Below are positions 14,130 to 62,620 of a stretch of DNA of 64,000 bases, in pieces (within the stretch, counting starts at the first letter, position 1; every line of letters begins with the position of its first letter). A model generated the notes under the pieces. The model was not told the origin of the DNA. It saw only the letters and a program-made list of their open reading frames with translations, and ran no database searches. The stretch comes from an uncultured Flavobacteriaceae bacterium. Its GTDB lineage: Bacteria; Bacteroidota; Bacteroidia; Flavobacteriales; Flavobacteriaceae. The translations under genes were made by a program, and so were the position numbers. The DNA is taken from NCBI GenBank assembly GCA_943789465.1, contig CALSUF010000002.1:631952-695951 (forward strand), read 5' to 3'.

Positions 14130-14142
14130 ACGATCTATTTAG

Positions 14143-15842: not shown

Positions 15843-15937
15843 CGATTCGTACATAACAACGACCTCTTCCTTTATCCCTCCCCCCAAATCAACCAATATA
15901 CTTAATCTATGATGTGTTATGCTTTAAGTATAGACAC

Positions 15938-20309: not shown

Positions 20310-20387
20310 AAAACCCTTTAGAGTGTCATGGGACACCCTGCGGCGGAGCCGTGAAAATTTTAAATCAAATATGAGAACTATTCCAAA

Positions 20388-21497: not shown

Positions 21498-21558
21498 ATT
21501 ACTTTTAATATTTTTAACTGGGCTGCCTATCTTTGGCTCAAAATTACCCCTCTTTGTA

Positions 21559-34625: not shown

Positions 34626-35903
34626 ATGTACATATTTTGTACATTTAATTTTATGATTAAAACTTTAAAAACAATTACTCAAAAAAAATTAGGATTTAAA
34701 ATTGAAGACTATAACAGTTCTAGAAGGTTAAGTGAAATTATTTATACAGAAACTGGAATCGAAATCAGTTATAATACGCTGAGACGATTTTTTGGAATTG
34801 TAAAACCTGTTAAACCTAGTAATTACACTCTAAATGCTTTGGCGGTGTTTAATGGTTTTAAGAGTTATACCGATTTTGTGATGAACTTCCACTTGAAAAA
34901 TAGATGGAAGGAAGAGTTTCAAATAGTTTCTCTAATGGATGATCGAAAAAAAAAAATATTAGAATACATCCAAACTAATTTACACTCAAAAAGGGAATTC
35001 GTTCTAAAATTAACGCAAATAATTCGAGAGTTAATGTTGATTAAGGACTATAATTTTTTATTGCAGATATTTAGTTTGGATCAAATGAATTTTAATTATT
35101 TCAATTTTGATGATGTTGCATACATTGGTAACTGCACAGGTCCACTTCTAAAAACATTTGATTTAAAATCTACTGGGACTCATAGGCTTATACTCAATAA
35201 TAACTTTTTAGACATAGTAATAACCATCTTTGTAGACTATAAAAACTTAAATAATTATTATGGAGAATACCTAAGATATATCAACGCCAACTGTGAAAAA
35301 GAAAATATTAGCCAGTTTTGTAAAGGGGTCTTAAATTTAAATATGTACCTCAATAACGAAAATAAAAATCAAATGTTTAAACTAAAATTAAGTTCGAATT
35401 TTCACCCCATACTTAAAAGTAGGGTAATTGCTCAGGAGTTATTTTTTGAGTCTAACAACTTAATTGAAATTCTGAACAACTACGATAAACAGTCACAGGA
35501 GAAGGCCAGAATTAACATAGATTATTATTTTGAAATCATTACTACAGCAATTGTTACAAAAAAATTTGAGGTTATGGCATGGATTTTTAAAAAGTTTGAA
35601 TTCAAAACAAAATATGATAAGTTTTATAAATTTGAACATTATGAACACTTTGGGTTGATGGCTATGGTTTTGTTTAAATACCGTCAAGATGATAAGAACT
35701 TAAACTTATGGATTAAATCCATTTCATTTGATAATTTCTCTAGACCGTATGAAACTTTTATGCTACAATTCGTTTACATTCTCAAATACCACAACTCAAA
35801 AGCAAATAAGGTGTTTTATAAAACTAAGTATATGGAATCAGCCAAATATCTCTACCCAAAGTTTTTTACCGAAGACTACTTGATTAATTATTTTAACGTA
35901 TGA
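34626..35903 (+). CDS. Hypothetical protein with N-terminal AraC-like HTH fragment
   Basis: LSEIIYTETGIEISYNTLRRFFGI resembles one AraC HTH repeat. The rest is unknown. Confidence 0.45.
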   Translation: MYIFCTFNFMIKTLKTITQKKLGFKIEDYNSSRRLSEIIYTETGIEISYNTLRRFFGIVKPVKPSNYTLNALAVFNGFKSYTDFVMNFHLKNRWKEEFQIVSLMDDRKKKILEYIQTNLHSKREFVLKLTQIIRELMLIKDYNFLLQIFSLDQMNFNYFNFDDVAYIGNCTGPLLKTFDLKSTGTHRLILNNNFLDIVITIFVDYKNLNNYYGEYLRYINANCEKENISQFCKGVLNLNMYLNNENKNQMFKLKLSSNFHPILKSRVIAQELFFESNNLIEILNNYDKQSQEKARINIDYYFEIITTAIVTKKFEVMAWIFKKFEFKTKYDKFYKFEHYEHFGLMAMVLFKYRQDDKNLNLWIKSISFDNFSRPYETFMLQFVYILKYHNSKANKVFYKTKYMESAKYLYPKFFTEDYLINYFNV

Positions 35904-36727: not shown

Positions 36728-36757
36728 TCTAAATATTAAACATCAATTTTAGACAAA

Positions 36758-36797
36758 TCCTCACTAAAATAGTCCGATTTTACTCCCTTTGGGTCCA
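36758..36797 (+). repeat. Dispersed intergenic box, copy D (TCCTCACTAAAATAGTCCGATTTTACTCCCTTTGGGTCCAAA)
   Basis: Matches the box consensus. Located between convergent genes. Confidence 0.55.
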
Positions 36798-36843
36798 AAT
36801 AATATCTTAAGCAAATTATGTGTTACCTCTTAAAGTATTGTAA

Positions 36844-38775
36844 TTAGTTTTCAATAGTTACTAGTGGACTGACTGTTATATCTAGCGTATAGTGACCTCC
36901 AGAATAATTTACATTTGCAAAATGACCATCGGCATCAGCAGTCCAAATTGAACCATCAGAAATACCGGCAGGACCTGCTATTCTATAAATTGCTTTTTGA
37001 TCACCATTAGAATGCTCAGAAGGAGTTGTGAAATCATAGATTTTCACATTATTTTCTGTGTATAGGATGTATTGAGTATCAGCAATTCTATTATAATAAC
37101 CTCCACCAAATTGCGCCCATCCATATATAGTCATTTCTTTGAATTCAGAGATATTGTAAGGAGTATTAAAAAGAATCGTTCCAGTATCACCACCGTTGTA
37201 AGTATAATTATTTGTATCTGTTTTATTATCTCCAATCATGTGAATTATATCTCTTGTACCGCCAAAATTAGGGGATTGATGATTAACATTAGTTGTTGAT
37301 GCTGTTGCATAAGCTGGTCTTGCAGCGTCAAATTCTCCGCTATCACTATCCACAATAAAATGCATTGCTCTGATAGTTTGGTGTCCTCCAATTGATTTTT
37401 TAATTTCAATTTTTTTGATATTTGCAAATTCACTCGGAAGAATAGCATTAGTCATATCGGCGCCGCTTAAATCAGCCCCACTTAAATCAACACCACTTAA
37501 ATCGACACCACTCAAGTCTTGATTTATTAAGTCTGCGTTAGATAGATCAACTCTTGGTCCAACAATATAACCATTAACAATTGAGTATCCTGGCGGTAAT
37601 GTAGGATTTCCTGAAACATTTCCAGAACTGACACCAGTAAAAGTTGCACCAGAAAAATCAATTCCTGTTAAATCAATTCCTGATAAATCAGCAGAATATA
37701 GGTCAGAATTTGTAAAATTACTACTCCCATTTTGTATCATTAATCTTATTAAAGATCTAGCAGGAGCAGCTGAACTTGAAATACTAGACTCTCCTTGAAT
37801 TCCTTGAGGCCCAGTTTCTCCAGAAGGACCTGTTAAGTCAGAGGTTGTGAAAGTTGTTCCATCATCAAAAGACAATGTAAATGTTCCATTATTATTATCT
37901 GTTGCGGAAACAATTCCATTCCCAGCAGAACCAGCATTTCCAGGTGGTCCTACTAGACCTTGTGCACCATCTGCACCATCTGCACCTGGAGCACCTGCAG
38001 CACCTATACTTCCTGTTGGACCTATTGGACCTTGAGCACCATCAACTCCGTCAACACCTGCTGGGCCTGGAGCACCTTGGTTTCCTTGAGGACCTGCTGG
38101 ACCGATTGGACCTATTGGACCTTGAGCGCCATCTGCACCATCTGCACCTGCTGGACCTTGATTTCCTTGAGCTCCTGCAGCACCTATACTTCCCGTTGGA
38201 CCTATTGGACCCTGAGTACCAGTCTCGCCTTGTATTCCTTGGTCGCCTTGTACACCTTGAGCACCATCAACTCCGTCTTGACCATCAACACCTGCTGGGC
38301 CTGGAGCACCTTGATTTCCTTGAGGACCTGCTGGACCGATTGGACCTATTGGACCCGGAACTGTTGAGTCCGCGCCAACTGGACCTTGAACACCTTGATT
38401 TCCTGCTGGGCCTTGAACACCTGCTGGACCCTGAGCACCATCTTCGCCATCTGCACCTGCTAATCCTTGAGGACCTGCTGGACCTTGTGGACCTGTTAGA
38501 CCTTGAGGACCAACTACGCCATCAATTTTTGCCCAAGCTGTTCCATTATAAAAATAAAATCCTGATATTTCATCTGTTTGATAAATCATTAAACCTGTAG
38601 CAGGTGCTGAAATATCATCACGCTGCGTCTCTGTGAGACGTGGAATTAAAATACCTCCTGTGGTGGATTCAATTTCTAATGCCGAAGAAGCATTTGGGGT
38701 ATTGGTATTAATACCAACCTGAGCGTAGCTGAGTACTGTAAATAGCATGACTATCAAAAAGTTGATTTTTTTCAT
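36844..38775 (-). CDS. Secreted collagen-like (G-X-Y) protein with C-terminal pentapeptide-repeat and globular domains; paralog family N-domain
   Basis: Signal peptide MKKINFLIVMLFTVLSYAQ. Conserved 80-aa N-domain VGINTNTPNASSALEIESTTGGILIPRLTETQRD...GLMIYQTDEISGFYFYNGTAWAKIDG. About 70 uninterrupted GXY triplets. Pentapeptide repeats ADLSGIDLTGIDFSGATFTG and DLSGVDLSGVDLSGADLSGADM. Confidence 0.8.
   Translation of the reverse strand: MKKINFLIVMLFTVLSYAQVGINTNTPNASSALEIESTTGGILIPRLTETQRDDISAPATGLMIYQTDEISGFYFYNGTAWAKIDGVVGPQGLTGPQGPAGPQGLAGADGEDGAQGPAGVQGPAGNQGVQGPVGADSTVPGPIGPIGPAGPQGNQGAPGPAGVDGQDGVDGAQGVQGDQGIQGETGTQGPIGPTGSIGAAGAQGNQGPAGADGADGAQGPIGPIGPAGPQGNQGAPGPAGVDGVDGAQGPIGPTGSIGAAGAPGADGADGAQGLVGPPGNAGSAGNGIVSATDNNNGTFTLSFDDGTTFTTSDLTGPSGETGPQGIQGESSISSSAAPARSLIRLMIQNGSSNFTNSDLYSADLSGIDLTGIDFSGATFTGVSSGNVSGNPTLPPGYSIVNGYIVGPRVDLSNADLINQDLSGVDLSGVDLSGADLSGADMTNAILPSEFANIKKIEIKKSIGGHQTIRAMHFIVDSDSGEFDAARPAYATASTTNVNHQSPNFGGTRDIIHMIGDNKTDTNNYTYNGGDTGTILFNTPYNISEFKEMTIYGWAQFGGGYYNRIADTQYILYTENNVKIYDFTTPSEHSNGDQKAIYRIAGPAGISDGSIWTADADGHFANVNYSGGHYTLDITVSPLVTIEN
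38172..38410. repeat. About 240-bp collagen-coding tract, near-identical to 39497..39736 and 48950..49190 (an inter-paralog homogenised segment)
   Basis: DNA identity is visible by eye (...cctatacttcccgttggacctattggaccctgagtaccagtctcgccttgtattccttggtcgccttgtacaccttgagcaccatcaactccgtcttgaccatcaacacctgctgggcctggagcaccttgatttccttgaggacctgctggaccgattggacc...). Antisense shadow ORFs 37881..38600, 39428..39754 and 48902..49600 share identical peptides. Confidence 0.75.
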
Positions 38776-38813
38776 TGTGGTATGTTTTATTAAATTATGA
38801 TTATATATTTTTT

Positions 38814-40355
38814 CTAATTAATTAATATAAAATTTGAAACACCATGATAAGAAAAAATACCTTTATGGTCAGTGTTATTATCAAAATAAGGTATTGTTGA
38901 AGTTTCTTCAACGTTATAATTTGATGGAATACTAGAAGATAAAATATCCTCTGTTTTATGAGTTTGAAGATTTAAAAATAATGAAGAATCAAAACTATAG
39001 TTGCCAATATTTGAAGTTCTTGTGGTGAAACTGTTGCTGTATCCAATATATAATATTCTGTAAGTTTTACCTGGACTTAGAATCAAATCAGGGTATTCAT
39101 TTGTGCTTATGTAAGAATAAATTTTTGCTCCAAACCCATCGTTAATATTATCATTATCTTCAAAAATATATGGTGCAGCAGATGCGTAATTACCTCCATC
39201 AGATTTTGGAATTTTACCTATACTAATTCTTTTTGCTACTTGAAAGGAAATTATGTAACTAACATTATATGTATTCGATGTAGAACTGGACGTAGGAGTA
39301 CTTAAAAAATTAACGTATGTACTACTAACTGTTTCACTTGAACTAGTATAGACGTATAAGTTTTGTTTAGTAATATCAAAAACTAAATCCCCATCACTTA
39401 AACCCTCTATGCTACTAATATCAGAGTATGCTACTACATAAGCATTATTTGCTTGGAATGATTCACCAGAAGGACCAACTGGACCTTGTGCACCAGGAGC
39501 TCCTGCAGCACCTATACTTCCCGTTGGACCTATTGGACCCTGAGTACCAGTCTCGCCTTGTATTCCTTGGTCGCCTTGTACACCTTGAGCACCATCAACT
39601 CCGTCTTGACCATCAACACCTGCTGGGCCTGGAGCACCTTGATTTCCTTGAGGACCTGCTGGACCGATTGGACCTATTGGACCCGGAACTGTTGAGTCCG
39701 CGCCAACTGGACCTTGAACACCTTGATTTCCTGCTGGGCCGATTGGACCTTTAGCGCCATCTGCACCATCTGCGCCATCAGCACCGGCTGGACCTGCTGG
39801 ACCTTGTAAACCTTGTGAACCTGTTGGACCTACTGAGCCTACTGGACCTTGAGCACCATCTTCGCCATCTGCACCTGCTAATCCTTGAGGACCTGCTGGA
39901 CCTTGAGCACCATCAACTCCGTCAACACCTGCTGAGCCTACTGGACCTTGAGCACCAGTATCTCCTTGTATTCCTTGGTCACCTTGTGGGCCTTGAACAC
40001 CTGCTGGACCCTGAGCACCATCTTCGCCATCTGCACCTGCTAATCCTTGAGGACCTGCTGGACCTGCTGGACCTTGTGGACCTGCTGGACCGGCTACACC
40101 ATCAATTTTTGTCCATCCTGTTCCATTGTAAAAATAAAAACCTGATACTTCATCTGTTTGATAAATCATCAATCCCGAAGCTGGTGATACAATCGCATCT
40201 CGCTGTATTTCTGTTAATCTAGGAATGAGAATTCCTCCAGTGGTTGATTCAATGTCTAATGCCGATGAAGCATTTGGGGTATTGGTATTGATACCAACCT
40301 GAGCATAGCTCAATGCTGTAAACAGCATGAGAGTGATTAAAGTAATTTTTCTCAT
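38814..40355 (-). CDS. Secreted collagen-like protein (paralog) with a distinct Ser/Thr/Asn-rich C-terminal domain
   Basis: The same signal peptide and N-domain (MRKITLITLMLFTALSYAQVGINTNTPNASSALDIESTTGGILIPRLTEIQRD...). About 70 GXY triplets. Confidence 0.8.
   Translation of the reverse strand: MRKITLITLMLFTALSYAQVGINTNTPNASSALDIESTTGGILIPRLTEIQRDAIVSPASGLMIYQTDEVSGFYFYNGTGWTKIDGVAGPAGPQGPAGPAGPQGLAGADGEDGAQGPAGVQGPQGDQGIQGDTGAQGPVGSAGVDGVDGAQGPAGPQGLAGADGEDGAQGPVGSVGPTGSQGLQGPAGPAGADGADGADGAKGPIGPAGNQGVQGPVGADSTVPGPIGPIGPAGPQGNQGAPGPAGVDGQDGVDGAQGVQGDQGIQGETGTQGPIGPTGSIGAAGAPGAQGPVGPSGESFQANNAYVVAYSDISSIEGLSDGDLVFDITKQNLYVYTSSSETVSSTYVNFLSTPTSSSTSNTYNVSYIISFQVAKRISIGKIPKSDGGNYASAAPYIFEDNDNINDGFGAKIYSYISTNEYPDLILSPGKTYRILYIGYSNSFTTRTSNIGNYSFDSSLFLNLQTHKTEDILSSSIPSNYNVEETSTIPYFDNNTDHKGIFSYHGVSNFILIN
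39497..39736. repeat. Copy of the shared about 240-bp collagen-coding tract
   Basis: See 38172..38410. Confidence 0.7.
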
Positions 40356-40356
40356 C

Positions 40357-41055
40357 TTATTTTTTTATGATTTTAAACGTTGAGATTTGGTTTTTTGTGT
40401 TTTGTAAATTCAGTAAATAAACTCCTGTAGGTAGGTCTGTAACATCCAGTTCTAAGGCATTTGACTCTAATATTTTTTGACCTACTGTATTGAATAATGT
40501 AGAGTGTTGTGGAGAATTAGAAACTATAATTATTTTATCGGTTGTTGGATTTGGGTAAACCCTTACTATATCATTTAGTGTTTCTGTTTTTATGGTGAGT
40601 GTTGCTGATGAAGCACTTGCTGTAACTTGTTTAAAGCCAACAAGCTCTGTAAAATCATAGCTCAATATGTTATTCACATCATCAATAGTTGGTGCAAGGT
40701 TATTCCAAACATCATTGGCATCCAATACTTCTAGAACTAATTCTGCTTCGTCAATACCATTGAGCTCAGAGTTTAAATAACGAAAAGAAAGTATTCCTGA
40801 ATAATCAGTTAGTTCATTTGATAATTCATAAACTCTTTCAATACTAGAGTTATTTCCAACAACTATTGGGGTAGTCGATCGAGCAATAGAATTAGGCCCT
40901 GTTATGGTATGAGATACACTAGGGGATAATTCTAATCCGTCTACTGAAACAGAACTATTGGAGTTAACGCTAACAAAACTTCCTGATTCAACGCTAAGAG
41001 TTTGGCTAAAACAAAAGGAGGTCGCTAGCAATATAGCGAAATGTAATTTGTGCAT
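40357..41055 (-). CDS. Small T9SS-secreted protein (Por C-terminal sorting domain)
   Basis: Signal peptide [19 protein letters not shown]-terminus RVYPNPTTDKIIIVS...TGVYLLNLQNTKNQISTFKIIKK. Its stop lies 1 nt before the collagen gene start. Confidence 0.7.
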   Translation of the reverse strand: MHKLHFAILLATSFCFSQTLSVESGSFVSVNSNSSVSVDGLELSPSVSHTITGPNSIARSTTPIVVGNNSSIERVYELSNELTDYSGILSFRYLNSELNGIDEAELVLEVLDANDVWNNLAPTIDDVNNILSYDFTELVGFKQVTASASSATLTIKTETLNDIVRVYPNPTTDKIIIVSNSPQHSTLFNTVGQKILESNALELDVTDLPTGVYLLNLQNTKNQISTFKIIKK

Positions 41056-41179
41056 GGTTAAAGGTTAAATTGGAATAGCAATATAGTTTAAAAAAATATA
41101 AAAACCGATACATAGTTGATACAAAACTATTAATGCAATATTAATTACATTTTATTTGAAAGAATTGAACCTCTTTAAA

Positions 41180-41220
41180 TCCTCAACAAAATAGTTCGAC
41201 TTCACTCCCTTTGGCTCCAC
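41180..41220 (+). repeat. Dispersed intergenic box, copy E (consensus-identical: TCCTCAACAAAATAGTTCGACTTCACTCCCTTTGGCTCCAC)
   Basis: Followed by the small hairpin cctg-atattcaa-cagg and then the conserved-loop terminator at 41261. Confidence 0.6.
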
Positions 41221-41260
41221 TTTAAAGCGACCTGATATTCAACAGGATTAAAAACAAAAA

Positions 41261-41292
41261 ATCTGCCAAGCTTGCTTGAACAGATTTTTTAT
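41261..41292. terminator. Bidirectional intrinsic terminator: A-run, stem atctg/cagat, loop ccaagcttgcttgaa, T-run
   Basis: aaaaacaaaaaatctgccaagcttgcttgaacagattttttatttt. Positioned to terminate the minus-strand 41435..46483 gene. Confidence 0.55.
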
Positions 41293-41434
41293 TTTAAGAC
41301 TGCTGGTCTGTAAGAACAGTGCCAGGGCATTTCCTAAGCGAGAGGCTAGAGAAAAACCAACAGTTATTCTTGGTGTTTGCACAATAAAAAACCCCTACAT
41401 TTCTGTAGGGGTTGTATTTTAAGGTATGTCTTGT

Positions 41435-44400
41435 TTAATTCTTTATAATTCTTTGTGTAGTGAGTTTAGCACCATCAGAAAGTTGTAGGATGTAGACTCC
41501 TTTTTCTAGTTGGCTAATATCTATACTATTTGTAATAGACTTATTCATTAGTTGCTTTCCAAGTATATCATATACAACTACTTTTAATTGAGTGTAATTA
41601 CCGTCTATGTATACTATATCTGAAGTAGGATTTGGATAAACAGAAAGCCCTAATTCAAATGCATGATCTCCCACACTTAATGCACTACAAGCTGCTTCAT
41701 CTTCAACAAAAGTAGCTGCAGGATCAATAGTTGTCCAATTTGTAGAACTATAGTCAGCATTGTCCACAAAAATACAGCTCAAATTAGGATTGTTTGTAGC
41801 AATAAAATAAGTAATGCTTGCATTATTTTCGTTTCTAATATCTAATGTTTCTAATTGATTATTATCAACACTCAAAATTTCCAAATTAGTGTTACTACTA
41901 AGATCTAAAGTTGTTAAATTATTTGAATTACAAGTCAAAATCTCTAAGGCAGGATTACTACTTACAATTAGTTCTGTTAATTGGTTATCATAACTAGCCA
42001 AAATCTCTAAGGCAGTATTACTACTCACAATTAGCTCTGTTAATTCATTAGAATTACAAATCAACGTAATCAAGTTTGCATTACTACTGACATCTAAACT
42101 TCTTAATCCATTGTTATTACATTCCAAATACTCCAAAGCAGTATTTTGACTCACATCTAAACTTGTTAATTGATTATTTTCGCATCTCAAATAGTCCAAA
42201 GCCGTAAATCCTTCTATTCCTGTCAAATCTGAAATATATAAACCTCCTAAATTTATACTTGTTATGCCATTAATATTTGCAGTTAATACTTGACCATCAA
42301 TTTCTCCCGAGTCTAGATTATAATCTATTAGGGCTTGTTCAAAATTGGCATCTGGAATGGAGGTGATTGAAGGACAAGTACCCCAAACTGGTGTATTACT
42401 CTCAGCCAATGGTGAATCAACACTAAAATTACTTGGCTCTGAAGTAATATCTGTAACACACCAATTTGATATATCTTGATTGAAAGCAGATGCTTGATAA
42501 AACATAGCTTCCATATTAGTAACACTACTCACATCCCATTCACTTATATCTTGATTGAAAGAAAATGCTCCAGCAAACATTTCTAACATTTCAGTCACAT
42601 TACTCACACCCCAAGCATTCAATGGTTGATTGAAAGATGATGCCCCAAAAAACATAAAAGACATATTAATAACGCTGCTCACATCCCATTCACTTATATC
42701 TTGATTGAAAGAAAATGCTCCAGCAAACATACTAACCATATTAGTCACACTACTTGTATCCCATTCACTTATATCTTGATTGAAAGATGATGCTTGATAA
42801 AACATACCACTCATATCAGTCACACTACTTGTATTCCAATCATTTAGTGGTTGATTGAAAACAGTTGCTCTAGCAAACATACCACTCATATCAGTCACAC
42901 TACTTGTATTCCAATCATTTAGTGGTTGATTGAAAGATGATGCATTATAAAACATATAACTCATATTAGTCACACTACTCACATCCCAAGAACTGATATC
43001 TTGATTGAAAGCAGTTGCTGATTCAAACAAATAATTCATATTAGTCACATTACCTGTATCCCAAGCACTTATATCTCCATTAAAAGTGTTTTTATCTTCA
43101 AATGCATCACTCATATCCGTTACTTGGCTCACGTCCCAATCTGGCATTAAACCGTATTCACTATCTGAACATAGACCATCTTCTGGATTTGTACTTAAAC
43201 AAGTGTTTATAGCAGTATAAAAATTATCATCTGTAATTGGGGTTAGATTGCTTGGACAAGTACCCCAAACTGGTGTATTACTCTCAGCCAATGGTGAATC
43301 AATACTAAAATTACTTGGCTCTGAAGTAATATTTGAAACACACCAATTGGATATATCTTGATTGAAAGCTGATGCTTCTAAAAACATAGAATCCATATTA
43401 GTAACACTACTCACATCCCAAGAACTTATATCTTGATTGAAAGCAGATGCAGAATAAAACATTTCATACATATTAATCACATTAGCCACATCCCAAGAAC
43501 CTATATCTTGATTGAATTCTGTTGCAGAATCAAACATACTATCCATTCTACTAACACTACTTACATCCCAAGAACTTATGTCTTGATTGAAAGATGATGC
43601 TTCTTCAAACATATAACTCATATCAGTAACACTACTTGTATTCCAATCATTTAGTGGTTGATTGAAATCGGATGCAAGAGCAAACATACCAACCATATTA
43701 GTCACACTACTTGTAACCCAATCATTCAATGGTTGATTGAAAGATGATGCATAAAAAAACATATAACTCATTTCAGTAACACTACTTGTATTCCAAGAAC
43801 TTATGTCTTGATTGAATTCTGTTGCAGAATAAAACATATAACTCATATCAGTAACACTACTTGTATTCCAATCATTCAATGGTTGATTGAAAGATGATGC
43901 ATAAAAAAACATATAACTCATTTCAGTAACACTACTTGTATTCCAAGAACTTATGTCTTGATTGAATTCTGTTGCAGAATAAAACATATAACTCATATCA
44001 GTAACACTACTCACATCCCAAGCACCAATAGGTTGATTGAAAGCCGATGCCCCTGCAAACATATAACTCATATTAGTCACACTACTCACATTCCAAGAAC
44101 TTATATCTTGATTTAATTCTGTTGCAGAATCAAACATACCATACATAGTTGTAACACTAATTGTATTCCAAGAACTTATATCTTGATTGAAAGATGATGC
44201 TTGATAAAACATATCTAACATATCAATCACATTACTCACATTCCAATTAGAAATATCTTCATTAAAATTTCGTTTTCCATCAAATAAAGAACTCATATCT
44301 GTAATTAAAGAAACATCCCAAGTATTCATTGCTCCGTAAGTTCCTGAGCCTTGTTCGGATGGTACTGGACTATCTGCAGTAATCGTCCCATCAATCCAAC

Positions 44401-46483
44401 CGTTCACGGCTGATTGTAATTCAGCTTTTGTTCTTGGTTGAAACATATTAAGAGCAACATCCGAAAGTCTCCAAACATCATTACTATCTCGTGTTATGGT
44501 AGGAGTTGGATTGTATCCTAAATCTAGAGCAGCCGCTGCACCACTAAACATATTGGTGACATTAACCGTTTCACTTTTTAATTGCCAGGTCCAAAGGTTT
44601 TGATTAAATAATACTGCATTATAAAACATACTGTCCATTGAATCTACATTACTAACATCCCAAGAACCAATATCTTGATTGAAAGATGATGCTTCTTCAA
44701 ACATAAAACCCATATTAGTCACACTACTTGTATCCCATTCACTTATGTCTTGATTGAAAGATGATGCTTTATAAAACATAGTTAACATATTAGTAACACT
44801 ACTTGTATCCCAAGCATTTAGTGGTTGATTGAAAGATGATGCTTCATAAAACATAAAACTCATAGTAGTCACACTACTTGTACCCCAAGAACTTATGTCT
44901 TGATTGAAAGATGATGCATCATAAAACATACCCTCCATATCAGTCACATTACTCACATCCCAAGCATTCAATGGTTGATTGAAAGATGATGCCCCAAAAA
45001 ACATACCACGCATAGTAGTCACACTACTTGTATTCCAATAATTCAATGGTTGATTGAAAGATGATGCATCCGAAAACATTCGATACATATTAGCAACATT
45101 ACTCACATTCCAATTAGAAATATCTTCATTAAAATTTTGTTTACCATCAAATAAATAACTCATATCTGTAATTAAAGAAACATCCCAAGTATTCATTGCT
45201 CCGTAAGTTCCTGAGCCTTGTTCGGATGGTACTGAACTATCTGCAGTAATTGTGCCATCAATCCAACCGTTCACGGCTGATTGTAATTCAGCTTTTGTTC
45301 TTGGTTGAAACATATTAAGAGCAACATCCGAAAGTCTCCAAATTTCATTACTATATTGTGTTATGGAAGGAGTTGTATTGTATCCTAAAGCTCGAGCAGC
45401 CGTTGCTAAATAAAACATATCCGTAACACTCACCTCACCACTTTTTAATTGCCAGGTCCAAAGGTTTTGATTAAATAATACTGCATTACTAAACATATAA
45501 CCCATATCAGTCACACTACTCACATTCCAAGCACTAATATCTTGATTGAAAGATGATGCATGTGCAAACATAGCATACATATCAGTCACACTACTCACAT
45601 TCCAAGTATTCAATGGTTGATTGAAAGATGATGCATCTGCAAACATACCATACATAGTTGTAACACTACTCACATTCCAATTAGAAATATCTTCATTAAA
45701 ATTTTGTTTTTCCTCAAATAAAGAACTCATATCTGTAATTAAAGAAACATCCCAAGTATTCATTGCTCCATAAGTTCCTGAGCCTTGTTGGGATGGTACT
45801 GGACTATCTGCAGTAATCGTCCCATCAATCCAACCGTTCACGGCTGATTGTAATTCAGCTTTTGTTGTTGGTTGAAACATATTAAGAGCAACATCCGAAA
45901 GTCTCCAAATTCCATTACTATCTTGTGTTATGGAAGGAGTTGTATTGTATCCTAACGCTAGAGCAGCCGTTGCACCATTAAACATATTGGTGACCCTAAC
46001 CGTTTCACTTTTTAATTGCCAGTTCCAAAGGTTTTTATTAAATAATACTGCATTCTCAAACAAATTTATCATGTTAGTCACATTACTCACATCCCAAGAA
46101 CTTATGTCTTGATTGAATTCTGTTGCAGAATCAAACATACCAACCATATTAGTCACACTACTTGTATTCCAATCATTCAATGGTTGATTGAAAGATGATG
46201 CATAAACAAACATATAACTCATATCAGTAACACTACTTGTATTCCATTCACTTATATCTGCATTGAAAGCGGTTTTTTCTAAAAATGCATTGGACATATC
46301 TGTTACTTGGCTTACATCCCAATCTGGCATTGCACCATATTCACTATCTGAACACATTCCATCCTCTGGATTGCTAGTTAAACAAGTATTTATTGCAGTT
46401 TGAAAATTAGCATCTGTAATGGGGGTGTTTTGACTAAAGCAAAAAGAAGTGGCTAGTAATAAAACAAATTGTAACTTTAACAT
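41435..46483 (-). CDS. Giant T9SS-secreted surface protein (1682 aa): about 35 DUF285 (BspA/Mycoplasma-lipoprotein-type) repeats, C-terminal leucine-rich repeats and a Por sorting domain
   Basis: Signal peptide [18 protein letters not shown]. Reiterated approximately 26-aa DUF285 unit ([40 protein letters not shown]). LRR block [36 protein letters not shown].... C-terminus [34 protein letters not shown]...[21 protein letters not shown]. Internal large duplications (three copies of [57 protein letters not shown]). Confidence 0.85.
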
Positions 46484-46520
46484 AGGTTATTTTTGAAAAT
46501 TAATTTTCAAAAATAACCTA
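46481..46520. promoter_or_regulatory. Perfect 40-bp AT-rich palindrome ataGGTTATTTTTGAAAATTAATTTTCAAAAATAACCtat, overlapping the start codon of the DUF285 gene and just downstream of the crp/fnr gene
   Basis: The sequence equals its own reverse complement over 40 nt. There is no loop, so it is a cruciform or dimeric-protein operator candidate, or a hairpin that sequesters the start codon. Confidence 0.4.
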
Positions 46521-46561
46521 TTGGAAATCCACACACATTGATCCGGGTTAAGAAATGACCC

Positions 46562-47140
46562 TTATTTTTTAGAAATTCTATTTTTTATCCTACTAAAGCC
46601 TTCAGGACTCATTCCTAAATAGGAAGCAATCATATATTGAGGCACCCTTTGAAAAAATTTAGGTCTAGTATTTATTAATTCCAAATAACGCTCCTCGGGA
46701 GAATTAAGAAAGAATGATTCGTATTTTCCTGAAACTTCCATGTACAAATTCTCAACTATTTTTCTGCTAAGTACTTGAACTTTAGGAAGTTTTTCATAAA
46801 GCATTAAAAGATCATTTCGGTGTATAAGTGTAACTGAGCAGTCTTCCAAGGCTTGAATATAAAATTTAGACTTATTCTCTAAAAGAAAACATGGGTAGTT
46901 AGAAATAAATTCATTGGGGAAAAAAAACCCTCGTATATGCTCAACACCACCAATTAAGTAATAGAAATTAAAAAAACCTTTGTCTACAAATCCAACATGG
47001 TTACAATAGTCGTTTTCTTTTAATAAGTAGTCCCCTTTTTTGTACTTTTTTGTAACAAGAGATGCTGATAAGACCGACCATTCTTCTTCTGTTAAATTTA
47101 CAAAATTAGTTAATAAGGCTTTAATGTTAACATTCATCAT
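46562..47140 (-). CDS. Crp/Fnr-family transcriptional regulator (cNMP-binding domain + C-terminal HTH)
   Basis: Beta-roll cNMP-like region (KKGDYLLKENDYCNHVGFVDKGFF). C-terminal HTH RVPQYMIASYLGMSPEGFSRIKNR. Confidence 0.75.
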   Translation of the reverse strand: MMNVNIKALLTNFVNLTEEEWSVLSASLVTKKYKKGDYLLKENDYCNHVGFVDKGFFNFYYLIGGVEHIRGFFFPNEFISNYPCFLLENKSKFYIQALEDCSVTLIHRNDLLMLYEKLPKVQVLSRKIVENLYMEVSGKYESFFLNSPEERYLELINTRPKFFQRVPQYMIASYLGMSPEGFSRIKNRISKK

Positions 47141-47392
47141 TTTAATTAGTCAATTGGTTTTTTGCAAATGTAAGTCTAATGATTGAATTCTAAGACAAAA
47201 AGCAAGGGCTGTTTTTGGGTAAACCCATTACAGCATACCAATTATAAAGTCTTGGTTTTTTGGAGTCATTATTATAATTAGCCCAAGCACCTTTGGTTAG
47301 GCTTTCCCGCTGAGTTGGATCAATAACTTGTGGAATGGTGGTACCATCTCTTTGAGAAACCATCTTGGCGTTTTCTGTTTAATTTTTCCAAA

Positions 47393-47433
47393 TCCTTACC
47401 AAAATGGTTCGACTTTTCTCCCTTTGGCTCCAC
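47393..47433 (+). repeat. Dispersed intergenic box, copy F (TCCTTACCAAAATGGTTCGACTTTTCTCCCTTTGGCTCCAC), followed by the cccaagaataat...atccttgg hairpin as in copy C
   Basis: Matches the box consensus. Its trailing hairpin/T-run is shared with copy C. Confidence 0.6.
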
Positions 47434-47606
47434 TTTTTATTCCCAAGAATAATTTTTTATCCTTGGAAATAATTTTTTAATTATTTGCAGAAAATTAGTT
47501 CTTATTAAACTTTAAATTAAATCAACAATATCAAATTGTTATAAAAATAGCATATAAAAACACCACTCAATATTGAGTGGTGTTTATAAGTTTAATTTAA
47601 AAAGTT

Positions 47607-49664
47607 CTAGAAAGACCTTATAGCCCTAACCTTGATTCCTTCAGCGGTATCTTTTGGTTTGAATTGATTGTAATTATTAGCATAATTACCTAAAACTTCT
47701 GCATACGCATTATCTGCATCATGTTCTGTAGAAGACCAATAATTATAAGCATATAAATTTGGCACTCCAGCTCCGGATGTTTTAATTAAATGTAATTCAT
47801 CTTTTGACGGCAAATACCAATCCCCATAATCAACTCCATTTTGTGTGTAACGATATTCATTACATGCTCTGGCTGCAAAATTATTTCCATTGTTTGCAGC
47901 GGAAGCATGAGCAGCAATTATAATAGCAGTATTCATTTTGCCAGCATATATCCCATTACTCTGAGCTAGCGTTTCCAAATTTAATCCATTTGATGCAGTT
48001 CCAGCATTCCAATCCATAACTAACGACCCACCTGAATCTTCAACTGCAACAACCAAACCATGTTGTCCAGTTGCATCTACCCAAAATACTTTTCCACCTT
48101 GAGCAGTATCACCAACATTATACGTTGTAGCCCCACTAGATGGAGTTGTCCACGAAAGTGTTCCGGAACCATCTGTTGCTAAAACCTGTCCATTTTCTCC
48201 ATCTGTATTTGGATAGGTATTTCCACTTGCAATTAAAGTTGGAATGGTTACCGTCCCTGTAAAGGCTGGCGAAGCAATATTAGCTTTTAAATCGATTGCT
48301 GTATTTTGAGCAATTTGCTCCGAAGTAATCGTAGATAATGAACTAGTAGCTAAAGAACTTACAGCACGTACTGCACGCACATAAAAAGAAGCATTCGTAT
48401 CGATGTAATACTGACTACCATTAGCAAAATGCTGGTATGCAGCGACATTGCTACCAGACTGCGTAGAAGTCCAATAGTAACCATTTGTAAAACTAGCTGC
48501 ACCACCATTTTCAACAGCTTTAGTATTTATTGTTACTCTGTTTGTATATATATGATGTAACGCATCTTTTGAGGGTAAAAACCAATCTGTAAAACCGCCA
48601 CCATTATGAGCTCTTGCTAAACCTGCTGCATAGTTGACTTCTGTTAGGCCTTGTGCACTTATAATAGCCGTTGTATTGGCTGCTCCAGTACCTATTGCGG
48701 TTCCTGATGCGCCTGTTACTGTATAAACACCATTGTACCACTGTATTCCTGTACTTTGGTTATCTACAGCACAAACAAGACCTTGAGTTGCATCATTTGG
48801 GTCTACCCAAAACACGATACCACCACCTATATAATCTCCTATTGTTAGTGACGGAGCTGCTTGATCGTTATTAATAATATCTGATAGAGCAGCAATTTCA
48901 CTTGTATCTGCATCTGCACCTGCTGGACCGATTGGACCTTGAGCGCCATCTGCACCTGCTGGGCCTGCAGCACCTATACTTCCTGTTGAACCTATTGGAC
49001 CCTGAGTACCAGTCTCGCCTTGTATTCCTTGGTCGCCTTGTACACCTTGAGCACCATCAGCTCCGTCTTGACCATCAACACCTGCTGGGCCTGGAGCACC
49101 TTGATTTCCTTGAGGACCTGCTGGACCGATTGGACCTGGAACTGTTGAGTCCGCGCCAACTGGACCTTGAACACCTTGATTTCCTGCTGGACCGATTGGA
49201 CCTTGAGCGCCATCTGCACCATCTGCACCTGCTAGGCCTGCAGCACCTATACTTCCTGTTGAACCTATTGGACCCTGAGTACCAGTCTCGCCTTGTATTC
49301 CTTGGTCGCCTTGTACACCTTGAGCACCATCAGCTCCGTCTTGACCATCAACACCTGCTGGGCCTGGAGCACCTTGATTTCCTTGAGGACCTGCTGGACC
49401 TGCTACTCCATCAATTTTTGTCCAAGCTGTTCCATTATAAAAATAAAACCCTGATATTTCATCTGTTTGATAAATCATTAACCCTGCCACTGGTGACACA
49501 ATTGCATCTCGCTGGGTTTCTTTCATTCTGGGAATTAAAATACCTCCTGTTGTGGATTCAATTTCTAATGCCGAAGAAGCATTTGGTGTATTGGTATTGA
49601 TACCAACCTGAGCGTAACTCGACGCTGTAAACAGCATGAGAGTGATTAAAGTAATTTTTCTCAT
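47607..49664 (-). CDS. Secreted collagen-like protein (paralog) with two C-terminal DUF1566 (Lcl-C-terminal-like) domains
   Basis: The same signal peptide and N-domain. Internally duplicated GXY block. C-terminal motifs DWFLPSKDALHHIY and DWYLPSKDELHLIK match the DUF1566 signature (W.LPt..EL..L) known from the Legionella collagen-like protein Lcl. Confidence 0.8.
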   Translation of the reverse strand: MRKITLITLMLFTASSYAQVGINTNTPNASSALEIESTTGGILIPRMKETQRDAIVSPVAGLMIYQTDEISGFYFYNGTAWTKIDGVAGPAGPQGNQGAPGPAGVDGQDGADGAQGVQGDQGIQGETGTQGPIGSTGSIGAAGLAGADGADGAQGPIGPAGNQGVQGPVGADSTVPGPIGPAGPQGNQGAPGPAGVDGQDGADGAQGVQGDQGIQGETGTQGPIGSTGSIGAAGPAGADGAQGPIGPAGADADTSEIAALSDIINNDQAAPSLTIGDYIGGGIVFWVDPNDATQGLVCAVDNQSTGIQWYNGVYTVTGASGTAIGTGAANTTAIISAQGLTEVNYAAGLARAHNGGGFTDWFLPSKDALHHIYTNRVTINTKAVENGGAASFTNGYYWTSTQSGSNVAAYQHFANGSQYYIDTNASFYVRAVRAVSSLATSSLSTITSEQIAQNTAIDLKANIASPAFTGTVTIPTLIASGNTYPNTDGENGQVLATDGSGTLSWTTPSSGATTYNVGDTAQGGKVFWVDATGQHGLVVAVEDSGGSLVMDWNAGTASNGLNLETLAQSNGIYAGKMNTAIIIAAHASAANNGNNFAARACNEYRYTQNGVDYGDWYLPSKDELHLIKTSGAGVPNLYAYNYWSSTEHDADNAYAEVLGNYANNYNQFKPKDTAEGIKVRAIRSF
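48950..49190. repeat. Copy of the shared about 240-bp collagen-coding tract (a second partial copy at about 49230..49400)
   Basis: See 38172..38410. Confidence 0.65.
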
Positions 49665-49800
49665 CTTATTTTTTTATGATTTTAAACGTTGAAATTTGGT
49701 TTTGTGTGTTTTTAAGTTCAGTAAATAAACTCCTGTAGGTAGGTCTGTAACATCCAGTTCTAAGGCATTTCACTCTAAAATATGATAGAATGCGAAATAA
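49665..49800 (-). pseudogene. Remnant of the 3' end of a T9SS C-terminal-domain gene (duplicate of the tail of 40357..41055), disrupted by a stop and a frameshift
   Basis: 49665..49790 is about 90% identical to 40357..40480. It translates (minus strand) to ...LE*NALELDVTDLPTGVYLLNL then goes out of frame, versus the intact ...LESNALELDVTDLPTGVYLLNLQNTKNQISTFKIIKK* upstream of the paralogous collagen gene. Confidence 0.5.
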
Positions 49801-59039: not shown

Positions 59040-59237
59040 ATATATTTAAAACATCAAAAAAATGATTGAAAAAACATTTCTTTTTACAATCTATCTTAGC
59101 TCTTTGATATGATGCAGTTAATGTCAGTAATTTTAGTTTTTAATTGAATTTTGGTTAACATTAATTTACTTTTAAATTCACATCTCTACTTAAATAAAAA
59201 ATTATTCATTAATTTAGCGACTTCTATTTGACAGAAA

Positions 59238-59567
59238 ATGTATCTAAAAAATCAACTTGGTAAAAACATTGCAGCAGTATTGCTTTTATTAGCTTTAATA
59301 CTTCCGACTGCAATTCAGTTTAGCCATATGGTTGAAGGGCACGAAGACGTTACTTGTAACGACCAAAGCACTCATATACATAAATCTTCGAAAACTTGCG
59401 AAGTATGTGCGTTTCATCTCACATCTATCAGTTATGATCTTGCTACATATCCTGATTTATCGTTACTACAAATTTCTGTAAAGGTGAGTACAAACTACAC
59501 ACCACTACAGTTATACTTCTCTACACTAACCAACAAACAACTACGGGGTCCTCCAATTTTTTCTTAA
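59238..59567 (+). CDS. Hypothetical exported His/Cys-containing small protein upstream of the TonB receptor
   Basis: Signal/TM IAAVLLLLALILPTAIQF followed by HMVEGHEDVTCNDQSTHIHKSSKTCEVCAFH (possible metal ligands). Confidence 0.4.
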   Translation: MYLKNQLGKNIAAVLLLLALILPTAIQFSHMVEGHEDVTCNDQSTHIHKSSKTCEVCAFHLTSISYDLATYPDLSLLQISVKVSTNYTPLQLYFSTLTNKQLRGPPIFS

Positions 59568-59606
59568 TATTCGAACACATACGTTTAATATTAATTAAGA
59601 ATTTAT

Positions 59607-62007
59607 ATGCGCAACCTTGCATTTTTGGTACTGCTATTTAGCAGTATTACATCGTTGTCACAAAATTGTAACAACTCACTTTCAGGCACAGTAACAGATA
59701 TTCACGATGGGCAATTGCTTACCGGAGTAACTCTTATTGTGGCAGAAACTGATCAAGCTGTTCAGACTGATTTTGATGGAACATATTCGTTTTCAAACCT
59801 TTGTAATGCTACATATTACATACAGGTTTCACATCCATATTGTTTGACAAAGGGCTTTACGGTTAGAGTTTCTGGAGATACTAAAAAGTCCTTTAAATTG
59901 GAGCACCACATAGAAGAGCTCAATCAAATTACGATTGAAGGCAAAACTTACAGCGATAAATCCAAAACACTTTTTGAAAATAGTATAGATAAAAATGAGT
60001 TGGAACGTTTTAGTAGTGCTTCTTTGGGAGATGCCTTAAAAAGTTTGAGCGGTGTCTCTTCATTAAACACAGGGAATACTGTTGTAAAACCTATGATTAA
60101 TGGACTTCATAGCAGTCGCGTAGTGATTGTTAACAACGGAGTCCGTATGGAAGACCAAGAATGGGGTGCAGAACATGCTCCTAACATCGATATAAATTCC
60201 GTTAGCAACCTTACAGTGCTAAAAGGTGCTGGTGCACTTCAATACAGTGGAGATGCTGTAGGAGGCGTCATTATTGCAGAAACCTCCAAAGTTCCAGTAA
60301 AAGATAGTTTGTATGGTAAGAGTTTAATGACTGCAACAAGTAATGGACGTGGGGCAGCTTTGAGTTCAAAATTGACTAAAAGTTATAAAAATGGAATGTA
60401 TGCAACACTGCAAGGAACATTGAAACACTTTGGTGACTTTGAAGCACCTGACTATATCCTTAGTAATACAGGGATTTTTGAAAGAAGTGCTTCTTTACAA
60501 GTTGGTTTCAACCGTTTTGACTATGGAATTGAGGGGTATTATTCAATCTTTAAAAATGAGATTGGCATTTTAGCTGCTTCACATTTGGGCGGAGCGAGGG
60601 ATCAAATTAGAGCCATAAGTAGCGATGTGCCATTAATCATAAACGATTTTACATATACCATCAATGCACCAAGGCAAGATGTATCGCATCAATTGGCAAC
60701 TGTAAAAGGATTTAAACGGTTTGAAAACTTTGGGAAACTGAGTATCCAATATGATTTTCAAAGAAACAACCGGCTTGAGTTTGATATCAGACGAGGGGAT
60801 GACAAAAACAAAGCTGCATCTGATTTGCAATTAGACACGCACACCGTTTTACTGGACTTAGAATCTCATTTAACAGATGCTATTACTCTGAAATCTGGAA
60901 TTATGACCAGGTATCAAAAAAAACGTTGCCAACCCCAACACAGGTGTTAGAAGGTTGATTCCTGATTATCAAATGTATGACTTTGGAATGTATTTCGTAG
61001 CTGATTACCAATGGAATGAGCAACTGCTTCTGGAAGCTGGAGCTCGCTATGATCATTCTTACATGAATGTTTTTAAATTTTATAGAACTTCCTTTTGGGA
61101 ATCCCGTAATTATGACCAGACTTTTTCTGAAATTGTGGTTGAGGAATTAGAAAATCAAATTTTAACCAATCCGCAACTAAACTTCAATAACGGTTCGGCA
61201 ACACTAGGAGCCAACTACACTTTTGGTGAAGATTATAAATTATTTTTCAACTACTCCATTGCATCTCGAGCACCAAATTCCTCAGAACTTTTCAGTGAGG
61301 GCTTACACCATTCTGCTTCTCGAATCGAACTAGGAGATTTGAGTTTTAACTCTGAAATAGCACACAAAGTTGCATTGACATTTCAAAGGAAAAACGATCT
61401 ATTTAGTTTTAATGTAAATCCTTATATAAATACCATTACTGACTTTATAGTAAATGAGCCTGTAGATGTCCAGCAGACACTAAGAGGCAACTTTCAAGTA
61501 TGGGAATACCGCCAAACAAATGCTCAGTTATTGGGTGTAGATATAGATGCTAGCTTTGCTTTTGCTGAAAATTGTCGTTTAAACAGTCAATTCTCTTTGG
61601 TCAAAGGCTACGATCGAACTCTTAACCAACCATTAATTAGCATACCCCCTGCAAACATAAGCAATGAAATTGTCTATCAAAATTCTGAATTCAATAACAT
61701 TCGCCTGTCTTTACAAAGTGCCTATAATTTTAAACAAAATGACTATCCCGATACTAATTTTGAAGTGTTCACACCAGAAACTCAAACGTGGCAAATGGTG
61801 GATGTAAGCTCTACTCCGGAAGCTTACCACTTACTTAATTTTAATTCGAGTATAGACATTAATATCAACCAAAACTCAAAATTAACAGTAGGATTCAGTA
61901 TTACAAACCTAATGAATACTTCCTATCGAAACTACCTGAACCGTTTGCGCTATTATGCAGATGATTTGGGCAGAAACTTTTTATTTAATCTTAAAATCAA
62001 TTATTAA
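59607..62007 (+). pseudogene. TonB-dependent receptor (CarboxypepD_reg-like N-domain + plug + barrel) interrupted by a +1 frameshift in an A8 homopolymer (60916..60923)
   Basis: Track ORFs 59607..60950 and 60955..62007 are the N- and C-terminal parts of one TBDR (N-domain SGTVTDIHDGQLLTGVTLIVAETD, plug SSASLGDALKSLSGVS, terminal ...FNLKINY). Removing one A from aaaaaaaa gives the continuous reading ...MTRYQKNVANPNTGVRRLIPDYQMYDF. Confidence 0.7.
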
Positions 62008-62031
62008 AACAACAATTCAAAAACAAAAACA

Positions 62032-62589: not shown

Positions 62590-62620
62590 ATTTGAATTAG
62601 TCACAATTCACTACACATTG

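Follow-up and report, generated by a model that had tools for sequence, protein, structure and literature searches.

A stretch of DNA from an uncultured Flavobacteriaceae bacterium (contig CALSUF010000002.1), a marine organism resembling Formosa, carries three paralogous genes for collagen-like proteins that begin nearly alike, end in unrelated domains, and share nearly identical tracts of DNA in between. We refer to the entire stretch of 64,000 nucleotides (nt) as the window and to the three genes as g1, g2, and g3. Our analysis suggests that their products are probably Sec-exported, trimeric fibers in which a collagen stalk presents a lectin or adhesin head, and that this family has been diversified by recombination. 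Display of the fibers possibly involves p232, a small gene directly ahead of g2 whose product carries a type IX secretion system (T9SS) sorting domain. The surface location, trimeric state, and ligands are features that we infer from the predicted proteins and their relatives. The three genes are complete open reading frames (ORFs) that are divided as follows (aa, amino acids; E, expectation value).

36844-38775, minus strand: g1, 643 aa, with PTL_trimer, collagen, a pentapeptide beta-helix, and a 194-aa C-terminal domain (based on the ORF, Pfam, and a precomputed PTL_trimer match on the identical protein)
38719-38775, minus strand: g1 signal peptide
38521-38718, minus strand: g1 N-domain, PF26696 PTL_trimer (aa 20-85)
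37915-38520, minus strand: g1 collagen stalk (aa 86-287; 66 GXY triplets with one STVP break)
37786-37914, minus strand: g1 28-aa insert and 5 further triplets, directly after the stalk
37429-37743, minus strand: g1 pentapeptide-repeat region (approximately aa 345-449; PF00805, E 1.2e-18; PDB pentapeptide proteins, E 1e-10)
36847-37428, minus strand: g1 C-terminal 194-aa domain (82% identical to the C terminus of the fiber protein of a related locus, L004)
38814-40355, minus strand: g2, 513 aa, start codon 1 nt after the p232 stop codon
40299-40355, minus strand: g2 signal peptide
40101-40298, minus strand: g2 PTL_trimer
39459-40100, minus strand: g2 collagen
38817-39458, minus strand: g2 head, a predicted beta-sandwich domain of 214 aa
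47607-49664, minus strand: g3, 685 aa, 62% identical over aa 1-633 to a 1089-aa protein of Formosa sp. Hel1_33_131
49608-49664, minus strand: g3 signal peptide
49410-49607, minus strand: g3 PTL_trimer
48912-49409, minus strand: g3 collagen
48366-48767, minus strand: first Lcl_C domain of the g3 head, followed by a tail-fiber-like linker
approximately 47610-48119, minus strand: second Lcl_C domain of the g3 head

All three products follow one plan, in which a signal peptide is succeeded by a 66-aa N-terminal domain (N-domain), a stalk of 54 to 70 GXY triplets, and a head that is unrelated to the other two. The signal peptides are of the Sec type and end alike in SYA/Q, and because no Cys is found at this point, the sequence reading indicates that the proteins are not lipoproteins. 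Residues 20 to 86 are 81-90% identical among the paralogs, whereas BLASTP found no match between the heads of g1, g2, and g3. Each protein also matches the Pfam Collagen family (E 1e-23 to 1e-31). A T9SS sorting domain, a lipobox, and an LPXTG motif were all missing from g1 to g3 when Pfam PF18962 and TIGR04183 were applied at E thresholds of 0.01 to 0.1 and the C termini were read for LPXTG.

A reading made earlier from the sequence alone had described these three genes, each with a signal peptide, as paralogs that have the N-domain and a collagen stalk in common and end in heads unrelated to one another, and our results bear out that description. The pentapeptide repeats that it assigned to the g1 head and the two DUF1566/Lcl_C domains that it assigned to g3 were likewise recovered with Pfam. 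It had also called the GXY repeats uninterrupted, which proved incorrect: a single conserved break of 4 residues (G-A-D-STVP-G) occurs in each stalk, and g1 alone has an additional insert of 28 residues before its last five triplets. Antisense ORFs overlie the GXY DNA (e.g., 37881-38600 on the plus strand), but we regard them as by-products because only the GXY frame joins the signal peptide and the Pfam N-domain to heads that Pfam recognizes.

The N-domain corresponds to Pfam family PF26696, named PTL_trimer, according to precomputed matches on the identical 643-, 513-, and 685-aa proteins and on all 69 N-domain homologs. Both the assignment and the name come from these precomputed annotations; the Pfam set used for our direct searches does not hold the PF26696 model, and with that set, NCBIfam, or PDB sequences, the N-domain gave no match. 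A literature search for PF26696 or PTL found no account of the family. Its size is considerable, as 60,181 proteins among 1.84 billion cluster representatives match the N-domain profile (E at most 1e-3), often with several copies per protein. A genome scan revealed more than 500 loci across Bacteroidota and into Chlorobiota, with the best matches in uncultured marine Flavobacteriaceae and Formosa. The N-domain is therefore a curated and very large Bacteroidota family that is not private to g1, g2, and g3.

Several features of this family point to a role in trimer assembly. In larger relatives, the N-domain precedes YadA_head repeats and a C-terminal Peptidase_S74 intramolecular chaperone (five of seven proteins). 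YadA_head and Peptidase_S74 are hallmarks of obligate trimeric fibers. An AlphaFold2 model of the N-domain is confident for residues 41-85, which form one helix and three strands, and weakly resembles the trimerization domains of collagens XV and XVIII and the necks of phage tailspikes. The first 20 residues of the domain are modeled poorly, as could be the case for a segment that depends on oligomerization to fold. Furthermore, N-domains bracket the collagen on both sides in three related loci (L002, L009, and L101). By inference, we assign the N-domain to trimerization and to setting the register of the stalk. A collagen stalk is present in only about 20 of the 107 N-domain ORFs of the loci that were fetched. 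We dropped the idea that N-domains are arrayed like beads on a string: our first hidden Markov model (HMM) of the domain included collagen columns and produced false multi-copy counts (8 "copies" in the Runella protein L057), and an HMM of the core alone gave one copy in that protein.

On the mechanism that we favor, the N-domain would trimerize and set the register, and the stalk would then fold into a triple helix of approximately 50 to 60 nm. The stalk would hold three heads at its tip, much like Legionella Lcl or a phage fiber, and these heads might bind glycans or the surfaces of algae or particles. The Lcl_C heads of Legionella are trimeric and bind carbohydrate, and Lcl homologs that combine collagen with DUF1566 have already been listed in Formosa, Winogradskyella, and other Flavobacteriia (PMC11162425). 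Because the fibers have no T9SS, lipoprotein, or sortase signal of their own, we propose that p232, sorted by the T9SS to the cell surface, would carry or anchor them. Export by the T9SS acts on proteins that are already folded, and the C-terminal domain has to be folded as well (PMC9251779). Two features in the window bear on this proposal.

40357-41055, minus strand: p232, 232 aa, composed of signal peptide, acidic domain of 147 aa, and C-terminal sorting domain of T9SS type A (CTD; PF18962, E 2e-10; TIGR04183, E 6e-11)
49666-49781, minus strand: remnant of a p232 3' end, 115 nt and frameshifted, which adjoins g3 upstream and keeps the TAA-G-ATG junction

The first of these heads a unit of p232, g2, and g1, in which the p232 stop codon lies 1 nt before the start codon of g2 and g1, the second fiber gene, starts 38 nt after g2. 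Outside of its CTD, p232 gave no match in Pfam, NCBIfam, or PDB sequence searches. We found 572 homologs, including FORMB_02750 at 93% identity. The same 1-nt gap separates a p232 homolog from the collagen fiber gene 3' of it in loci L001-L004, L006, L008, L012, L013, L016, L087/88, L091, L094-96, and L099-101. The junction is thus kept in the approximately 20 related loci examined, though p232 falls to 48% identity and the neighboring genes change. No p232 homolog was found 5' of non-collagen PTL genes in the fetched loci. The second feature was recognized from a repeat (40401-40473 versus 49709-49781, 95% identity) and from a 35-aa ORF ending in NQISTFKIIKK.

Related loci carry further genes beside this pairing. 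L094 has another gene of the p232 family (235 aa, 43% identity), and at its end it shares a 4-nt overlap with a 442-aa gene (2159-4191 for the pair) whose product has a signal peptide, Laminin_G_3, and Lcl_C but no CTD, PTL domain, or collagen. Because this paralog is paired with a LamG plus Lcl_C gene, the p232 family appears to pair with CTD-less lectin-type proteins in general. In the L099-L101 loci, from a strain with an 88%-identical p232, a 292-aa Gly-rich protein (weak Pfam Gly_rich_2 match; approximately 7965-8912) is encoded directly after the fiber gene. This protein may be a further component of the module, and it is absent from the window.

The alternative that survives best is that the proteins are soluble secreted, periplasmic, or vesicle-borne lectins that are not anchored to the cell, with p232 being a co-transcribed but functionally independent T9SS cargo. 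The missing T9SS sorting domain, lipobox, and sortase motif agree with this explanation, as does the rarity of a CTD among PTL-domain ORFs of related loci (2 of 107 with a home-made HMM, and none of the 7 large ones with Pfam). Legionella Lcl is also present in culture supernatant (PMC11162425). Nevertheless, the junction between a p232-family gene and a fiber or lectin gene, either a 1-nt gap or a 4-nt overlap, is kept over about 20 loci despite p232 identities of 43-50% and changed contexts, and even the degenerate copy upstream of g3 retains it. Such conservation would be unusual for unrelated neighbors, and we consider independent lectins unlikely. A bolder version of the fiber reading is possible but doubtful: the p232 family of marine Flavobacteriaceae would be a dedicated carrier or anchor for CTD-less fibers and lectins whose genes each start 1 nt downstream of a p232 gene. 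The folded trimers would be exported piggy-back through the T9SS or tethered to the cell in this way, and the block formed by p232, the signal peptide, and PTL_trimer would double as a homology arm with which strains swap stalk-and-head cassettes.

The stalks are acidic and nearly free of Lys and Arg, with 11-14% Pro mostly at X and Gln at approximately 30% of Y positions; the g1 stalk, for example, consists of 33% G and 14% P (mostly at X), with Q at about 30% of Y positions, 15 D plus E, and 0 K plus R. Their DNA also differs in composition, with a GC content of 55% versus approximately 32% in the genome and, for g1, 35% in the flanks. Within the stalks, one module recurs, and its copies are located as follows (the six assemblies are described below).

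38169-38412, minus strand: 244-nt tract in g1, an exact match to g2 39497-39740, exact in all six independent assemblies
39497-39740, minus strand: 244-nt tract in g2, an exact match to g1 38169-38412, with 170 nt recurring at 98.8% identity in the gene of Formosa Hel1_33_131
48990-49190 and 49263-49400 (span 48990-49400), minus strand: the same collagen module in g3, present as two near-identical copies

The sequence-only reading had reported tracts of about 240 bp identical in all three genes. This holds exactly for g1 and g2; in g3 the module is near-identical and occurs twice. Relative to the tract, the first g3 copy consists of exact runs of 70, 77, and 53 nt with 1 mismatch and one in-frame deletion of 9 nt, and g3 also contains an exact internal duplication of 166 nt (48962-49127 equals 49235-49400). 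By comparison, the N-domain DNA of the paralogs is only 81-87% identical, with differences at 28-35% of third positions. At 81% identity, 244 successive matches would have a probability of approximately 0.81^244, or about 5e-23, and therefore neither chance nor common descent without exchange explains the tract. The exchange was unequal, since the distance of the tract from the N-domain is not the same in g1 (aa 122-203) and g2 (aa 206-286). Over 170 nt, the Hel1_33_131 gene matches the module at 98.8% identity, and the other relatives compared do not have it, which indicates that the module is lineage specific and was spread by recombination. We conclude that a collagen module of about 80 aa has been copied from one paralog to another as well as inside single paralogs and that the family evolves by recombination, as had been supposed from the shared tracts.

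One of the six assemblies, L086 (ERZ10646655), carries at 11462-11560 a 99-nt in-frame tandem duplication in the g2 stalk (33 aa, GAQGVQGDQGIQGETGTQGPIGPTGSIGAAGAP). It falls at the end of the tract in g2, at approximately 39497-39595 of the window. This is probably a natural variant in stalk length; the same assembly also carries single-base indels or errors.

An alternative to ongoing gene conversion is that the identity of the tracts reflects strong constraint on the DNA or RNA, or one very recent duplication of the module. The module is indeed unusually conserved between species as well, at 98.8% over 170 nt in Hel1_33_131 versus 92.8% for p232 DNA. But in other parts of these genes 28-35% of synonymous sites differ, and the module occurs once in g1, once in g2, and twice in g3 at differing positions, while the 99-nt duplication segregates in the population. 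This is a pattern of repeated unequal exchange. We thus view constraint or a single duplication as quite unlikely, with the caveat that its distinction from gene conversion is one of degree.

If recombination shapes the stalks, the heads should be considered as well, and comparison among close relatives is informative in this regard. The closest cultured relative is Formosa sp. Hel1_33_131, whose p232 (FORMB_02750) is 93% identical in protein and 92.8% in DNA. Here, the only fiber gene behind p232 encodes a 1089-aa PTL-collagen-Lcl_C protein that resembles g3 in type (62% identity). The downstream flank of this gene matches that of g3 (90% identity over 47401-47557), and an upstream block of synteny matches window positions 59192-62610. 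A strain with a 97% identical p232 (L094) has a 1299-aa Lcl_C-type gene behind it, and a strain with an 88% identical p232 has a 438-aa PTL-collagen-PTL gene. Relative to L094, DNA identity declines from 96.7% in p232 to 90% in the N-domain, after which the collagen cannot be aligned and the head is different. Because identity collapses past the N-domain, the fiber gene behind the conserved 5' block has been replaced or rearranged among close relatives, and because strains with p232 genes 93-97% identical carry different fiber genes, the heads are really exchanged. In the lineage of the window, g3 as the Lcl-type gene kept the ancestral flanks and lost its own p232, and the intact p232 now heads g2 and g1.

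The nature of the heads agrees with such exchange. The g3 head consists of two Lcl_C/DUF1566 domains (PF07603, E 1.5e-17) that are joined by a linker with tail-fiber-like motifs. Both the 194-aa C-terminal domain of g1 and the 214-aa head of g2 lacked matches in Pfam, NCBIfam, and PDB sequence searches. A g1-type head, apparently orthologous at 82% identity, is found in L004 directly behind that locus's own p232 homolog. The g2 head was modeled as a beta-sandwich (pLDDT 70, from an alignment of 11 sequences). A jelly-roll of the C1q/TNF-like (BclA-type) kind had been expected for this head but was rejected on testing. In relatives, the modules that follow the stalk include Fib_succ_major, Lcl_C, a second PTL domain, a LamG-like domain, g2-type sandwiches, and the g1-type combination of pentapeptide repeats and C-terminal domain. 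In one protein (P0343), a g2-type head is fused straight onto the N-domain without collagen. Given this variety, the collagen-free protein, and the presence of a stalk in only a minority of N-domain ORFs, heads and stalks are independent modules. The exchangeable heads proposed earlier are thus supported both by their recurrence on other stalks, or on none, and by the strains described above.

Two further observations concern the heads. The protein P0341 carries a head 98% identical to that of g2 on a far shorter stalk, and it was not counted as a reliable chimeric allele since it comes from a short-read contig with 2.7x coverage. Sensitive blastn searches of the window found no second copy of any of the three heads that could serve as the template repeat of a diversity-generating retroelement; a reverse transcriptase was not explicitly searched for.

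Could these instead be tail-fiber genes of a phage or tailocin, either as a prophage remnant or as domesticated fibers, rather than host adhesins? Many PHROG "tail fiber" families match g1 to g3, the N-domain fold and the g2 head resemble a tailspike neck and a phage tail spike domain, respectively, and relatives carry the Peptidase_S74 tail-fiber chaperone. Two IMG/VR contigs also contain PTL_trimer, one near the C terminus of a 1956-aa ORF (L092, 105-5975) and the other in a 150-aa ORF between tail-like and major-head genes of a putative phage (L093, 4752-5204), and some Bacteroidota viruses therefore share this domain. However, almost all of the PHROG matches lie in the GXY region, with a few extending into the adjoining N-domain or head, and so they reflect repeat composition and not phage ancestry. 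All three fiber proteins have Sec signal peptides, and their neighbors encode a TPR protein, an EamA transporter, a Crp-like regulator, a DUF285 T9SS protein, and a TonB-dependent receptor. Near the fiber genes, neither Pfam on nine neighbors nor the precomputed annotations of the 20-kb locus revealed any gene for a capsid, tail, terminase, or integrase. In addition, the module occupies varied chromosomal contexts in many Flavobacteriaceae, and only 2 viral loci were matched versus more than 500 genomic ones. We rejected a phage origin on this genomic context and consider it very unlikely.

Collagen repeats are hard to assemble, and short-read relatives (L006, L008, L012, L016, and L091) do show truncated or split genes, but collapsed or mis-joined repeats are an exceedingly improbable source of the identical tracts. 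Eleven contigs encode the exact p232 protein, and six places from independent metagenome assemblies (contigs of 78-709 kb) were retrieved. Each aligns collinearly with 20 kb of the window (99.4-99.99% identity) and has the same gene order, the same three fiber-gene lengths, and the 244-nt tract exact in both g1 and g2. Within each gene, the sequence to either side of the tract is unique and diverged.

Some observations weigh against host fibers displayed with the help of p232, the reading that we nonetheless prefer. The surface location is assumed, since the Sec signal peptide was the only export or anchoring signal found in g1 to g3. The role proposed for p232 derives from gene adjacency, our literature search found no published precedent for a CTD-less partner carried through the T9SS, and the N-domain is not necessarily the docking site, given that one p232 paralog pairs with a PTL-less protein. 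Triple-helix stability is uncertain because the GXY run has almost no basic residues and only 11-14% proline. The Lcl_C domains of g3 are acidic, with computed isoelectric points of 5.0-5.7, versus the basic glycosaminoglycan-binding surface of Legionella Lcl. Finally, the model of the g2 head, a beta-sandwich that resembles a carbohydrate-binding module or a phage receptor-binding domain, is only moderately confident at the pLDDT given above.

Scl1/2, BclA, and Lcl are well-known examples of bacterial collagen-like adhesins in which a trimerization domain and a stalk of variable length are combined with a globular head. By its 54-70 GXY triplets per protein in the translated frame, each of g1 to g3 matches the Collagen family (PF01391). 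One close parallel is Legionella Lcl, in which an N-terminal oligomerization element, a collagen-like stalk with a variable repeat region, and a C-terminal DUF1566/Lcl_C head follow one another (PMC11162425). The likeness to Lcl that the sequence-only reading saw applies to the head of g3 and not to those of g1 and g2: Lcl_C is found in g3 only, as two copies parted by the tail-fiber-like linker. Moreover, the N terminus of Lcl is a 30-residue helix and its repeat is a 15-residue GPQGLPGPKGDKGEA unit (PMC11162425), whereas g1 to g3 have the 66-aa PTL_trimer and an acidic module of about 80 aa without Lys or Arg. Lcl is exported by the type II secretion system, and here a gene for a T9SS-sorted partner adjoins. 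The scores for NCBIfam adhesin_Lcl (NF046116) were 129 bits for g3, 107 for g2, and 88 for g1, below its cutoff of 500 bits.

Scl1/Scl2 and BclA place a globular trimerization domain beside a hydroxyproline-free GXY stalk, as g1 to g3 would if the N-domain trimerizes, and they too have strain-polymorphic stalk lengths and a variable globular domain. Unlike them, g1 to g3 have neither an LPXTG anchor nor exosporium targeting. The variable domain of Scl is N-terminal, whereas here the N-domain is conserved and the C-terminal head varies, and the g2 head differs from that of BclA in not being C1q/TNF-like. The NCBIfam models SclB and SclA (NF038330 and NF038329) gave a best score of 156 against a cutoff of 325 and scores of 91-105 against 400, respectively. 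Other PTL_trimer proteins of Bacteroidota share the N-domain right after the signal peptide, a long fibrous middle, a variable C terminus, and a tendency toward tandem paralogs. These proteins are uncharacterized, they often have YadA_head and Peptidase_S74 in place of a collagen stalk (found in approximately 20 of the 107 ORFs examined), and linkage to p232 was seen only in the collagen/Lcl_C subgroup of marine Flavobacteriaceae. The trimerization domains of multiplexins (collagens XV and XVIII) show a weak likeness to the N-domain model. Phage tail fibers and tailspikes are comparable in their conserved N-terminal part, trimeric shaft, neck-like trimerization modules, and horizontally exchanged C-terminal binding domains, but differ from g1 to g3, which have Sec signal peptides and a chromosomal, non-phage context with no virion genes nearby.

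What appears to be new is the combination of a collagen stalk nucleated by PTL_trimer with three paralogs that share one recombining module. The same combination also includes the exchange of heads between near-identical strains and the strict translational coupling to a small T9SS-sorted partner when the fibers themselves have no sorting signal. The partner gene, its remnant at g3, and the membership of the N-domain in a large family are absent from the sequence-only reading. During phytoplankton blooms, Formosa and its relatives in the Flavobacteriia are major users of polysaccharides from algae, and their attachment to algae and particles is poorly known. If our proposal is true, strain-specific attachment could plausibly be based on long fibers whose exchangeable lectin-like heads differ among near-identical strains, and the fibers could also act as decoys for phages or grazers. 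Coupling to p232 offers a concrete way to test how proteins that lack a sorting domain get to the surface in Bacteroidota, and Formosa sp. Hel1_33_131 is a cultured organism in which the module takes its simplest form (a single p232 gene with a single fiber gene). Should the carrier role also be true, the locus would represent a piggy-back mode of T9SS export together with a cassette system for adhesin specificity. The acidic collagen modules, free of both hydroxyproline and lysine, are of possible interest for the engineering of recombinant collagen.

The region upstream of p232 contains additional elements that recur in related loci.

41104-41129, minus strand: candidate promoter of the p232-g2-g1 unit, with a -7 box TAGTTTTG at 41129-41122 and an overlapping motif TGTATCAAnTATGTATC that is conserved upstream of p232 homologs
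41177-41223, minus strand: intergenic box of 42-47 nt (GTGGAGCCAAAGGGAGTGAAGTCGAACTATTTTGGTGAGGATTT), approximately 160 nt upstream of p232
36755-36801 and 47390-47436, minus strand: other copies of this box, downstream of g1 and of g3, respectively (0 expected by chance)

The segment at 41104-41129 is a probable promoter of the unit, as its TAGTTTTG element fits TAnnTTTG, the -7 box of Bacteroidetes. A strong intrinsic terminator of the preceding gene lies at 41390-41413. The intergenic box occupies the same position upstream of p232 in L002, L087, L091, and L094-98 and is found downstream of fiber genes in L003, L007, and L014, with three tandem copies in L007. It was also noted in L089 and across L094-L101, and a perfect hairpin, variable and AT-rich, usually comes before it. 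In all cases where it flanks a module, the box is on the strand of the fiber gene; elsewhere, its strand need not match that of its neighbors. Weaker copies occur in the window at 8028-8069 and 8991-9032, the latter on the minus strand within a region of plus-strand ORFs (8299-8910/9305-10411). Occurrence at unrelated intergenic sites rules out a module-specific element. RNAalifold revealed no conserved RNA structure for the box, and no Rfam match was obtained in the window. We speculate that the box could be associated with terminators or could act in regulation or recombination.

Between g3 and the p232 unit, a gene at 41435-46483 (minus strand) encodes a protein of 1682 aa in which at least 14 DUF285 repeats occur together with leucine-rich repeats and a T9SS sorting domain. 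Its DNA has a 75-nt periodicity with higher-order repeats of 492 and 567 nt, and its signal peptide closely resembles that of p232. In assemblies L081 and L086, frameshifts divide this gene. On the other side of the fiber genes, a plus-strand gene (34626-35903) encodes a 425-aa protein that has no Pfam match and a helix-turn-helix-like N terminus. Its homologs (47% and 28% identity) adjoin the p232-fiber modules of L003 and L001, and an AraC-type regulator is encoded near the module in L089. The 425-aa protein may be a dedicated regulator of the module; its gene is broken in assemblies L081 and L085. Lastly, the region at approximately 12000-24000 of the window has a GC content of 26-30% versus approximately 33% elsewhere and contains a run of plus-strand genes, and it looks like a surface-polysaccharide biosynthesis island.

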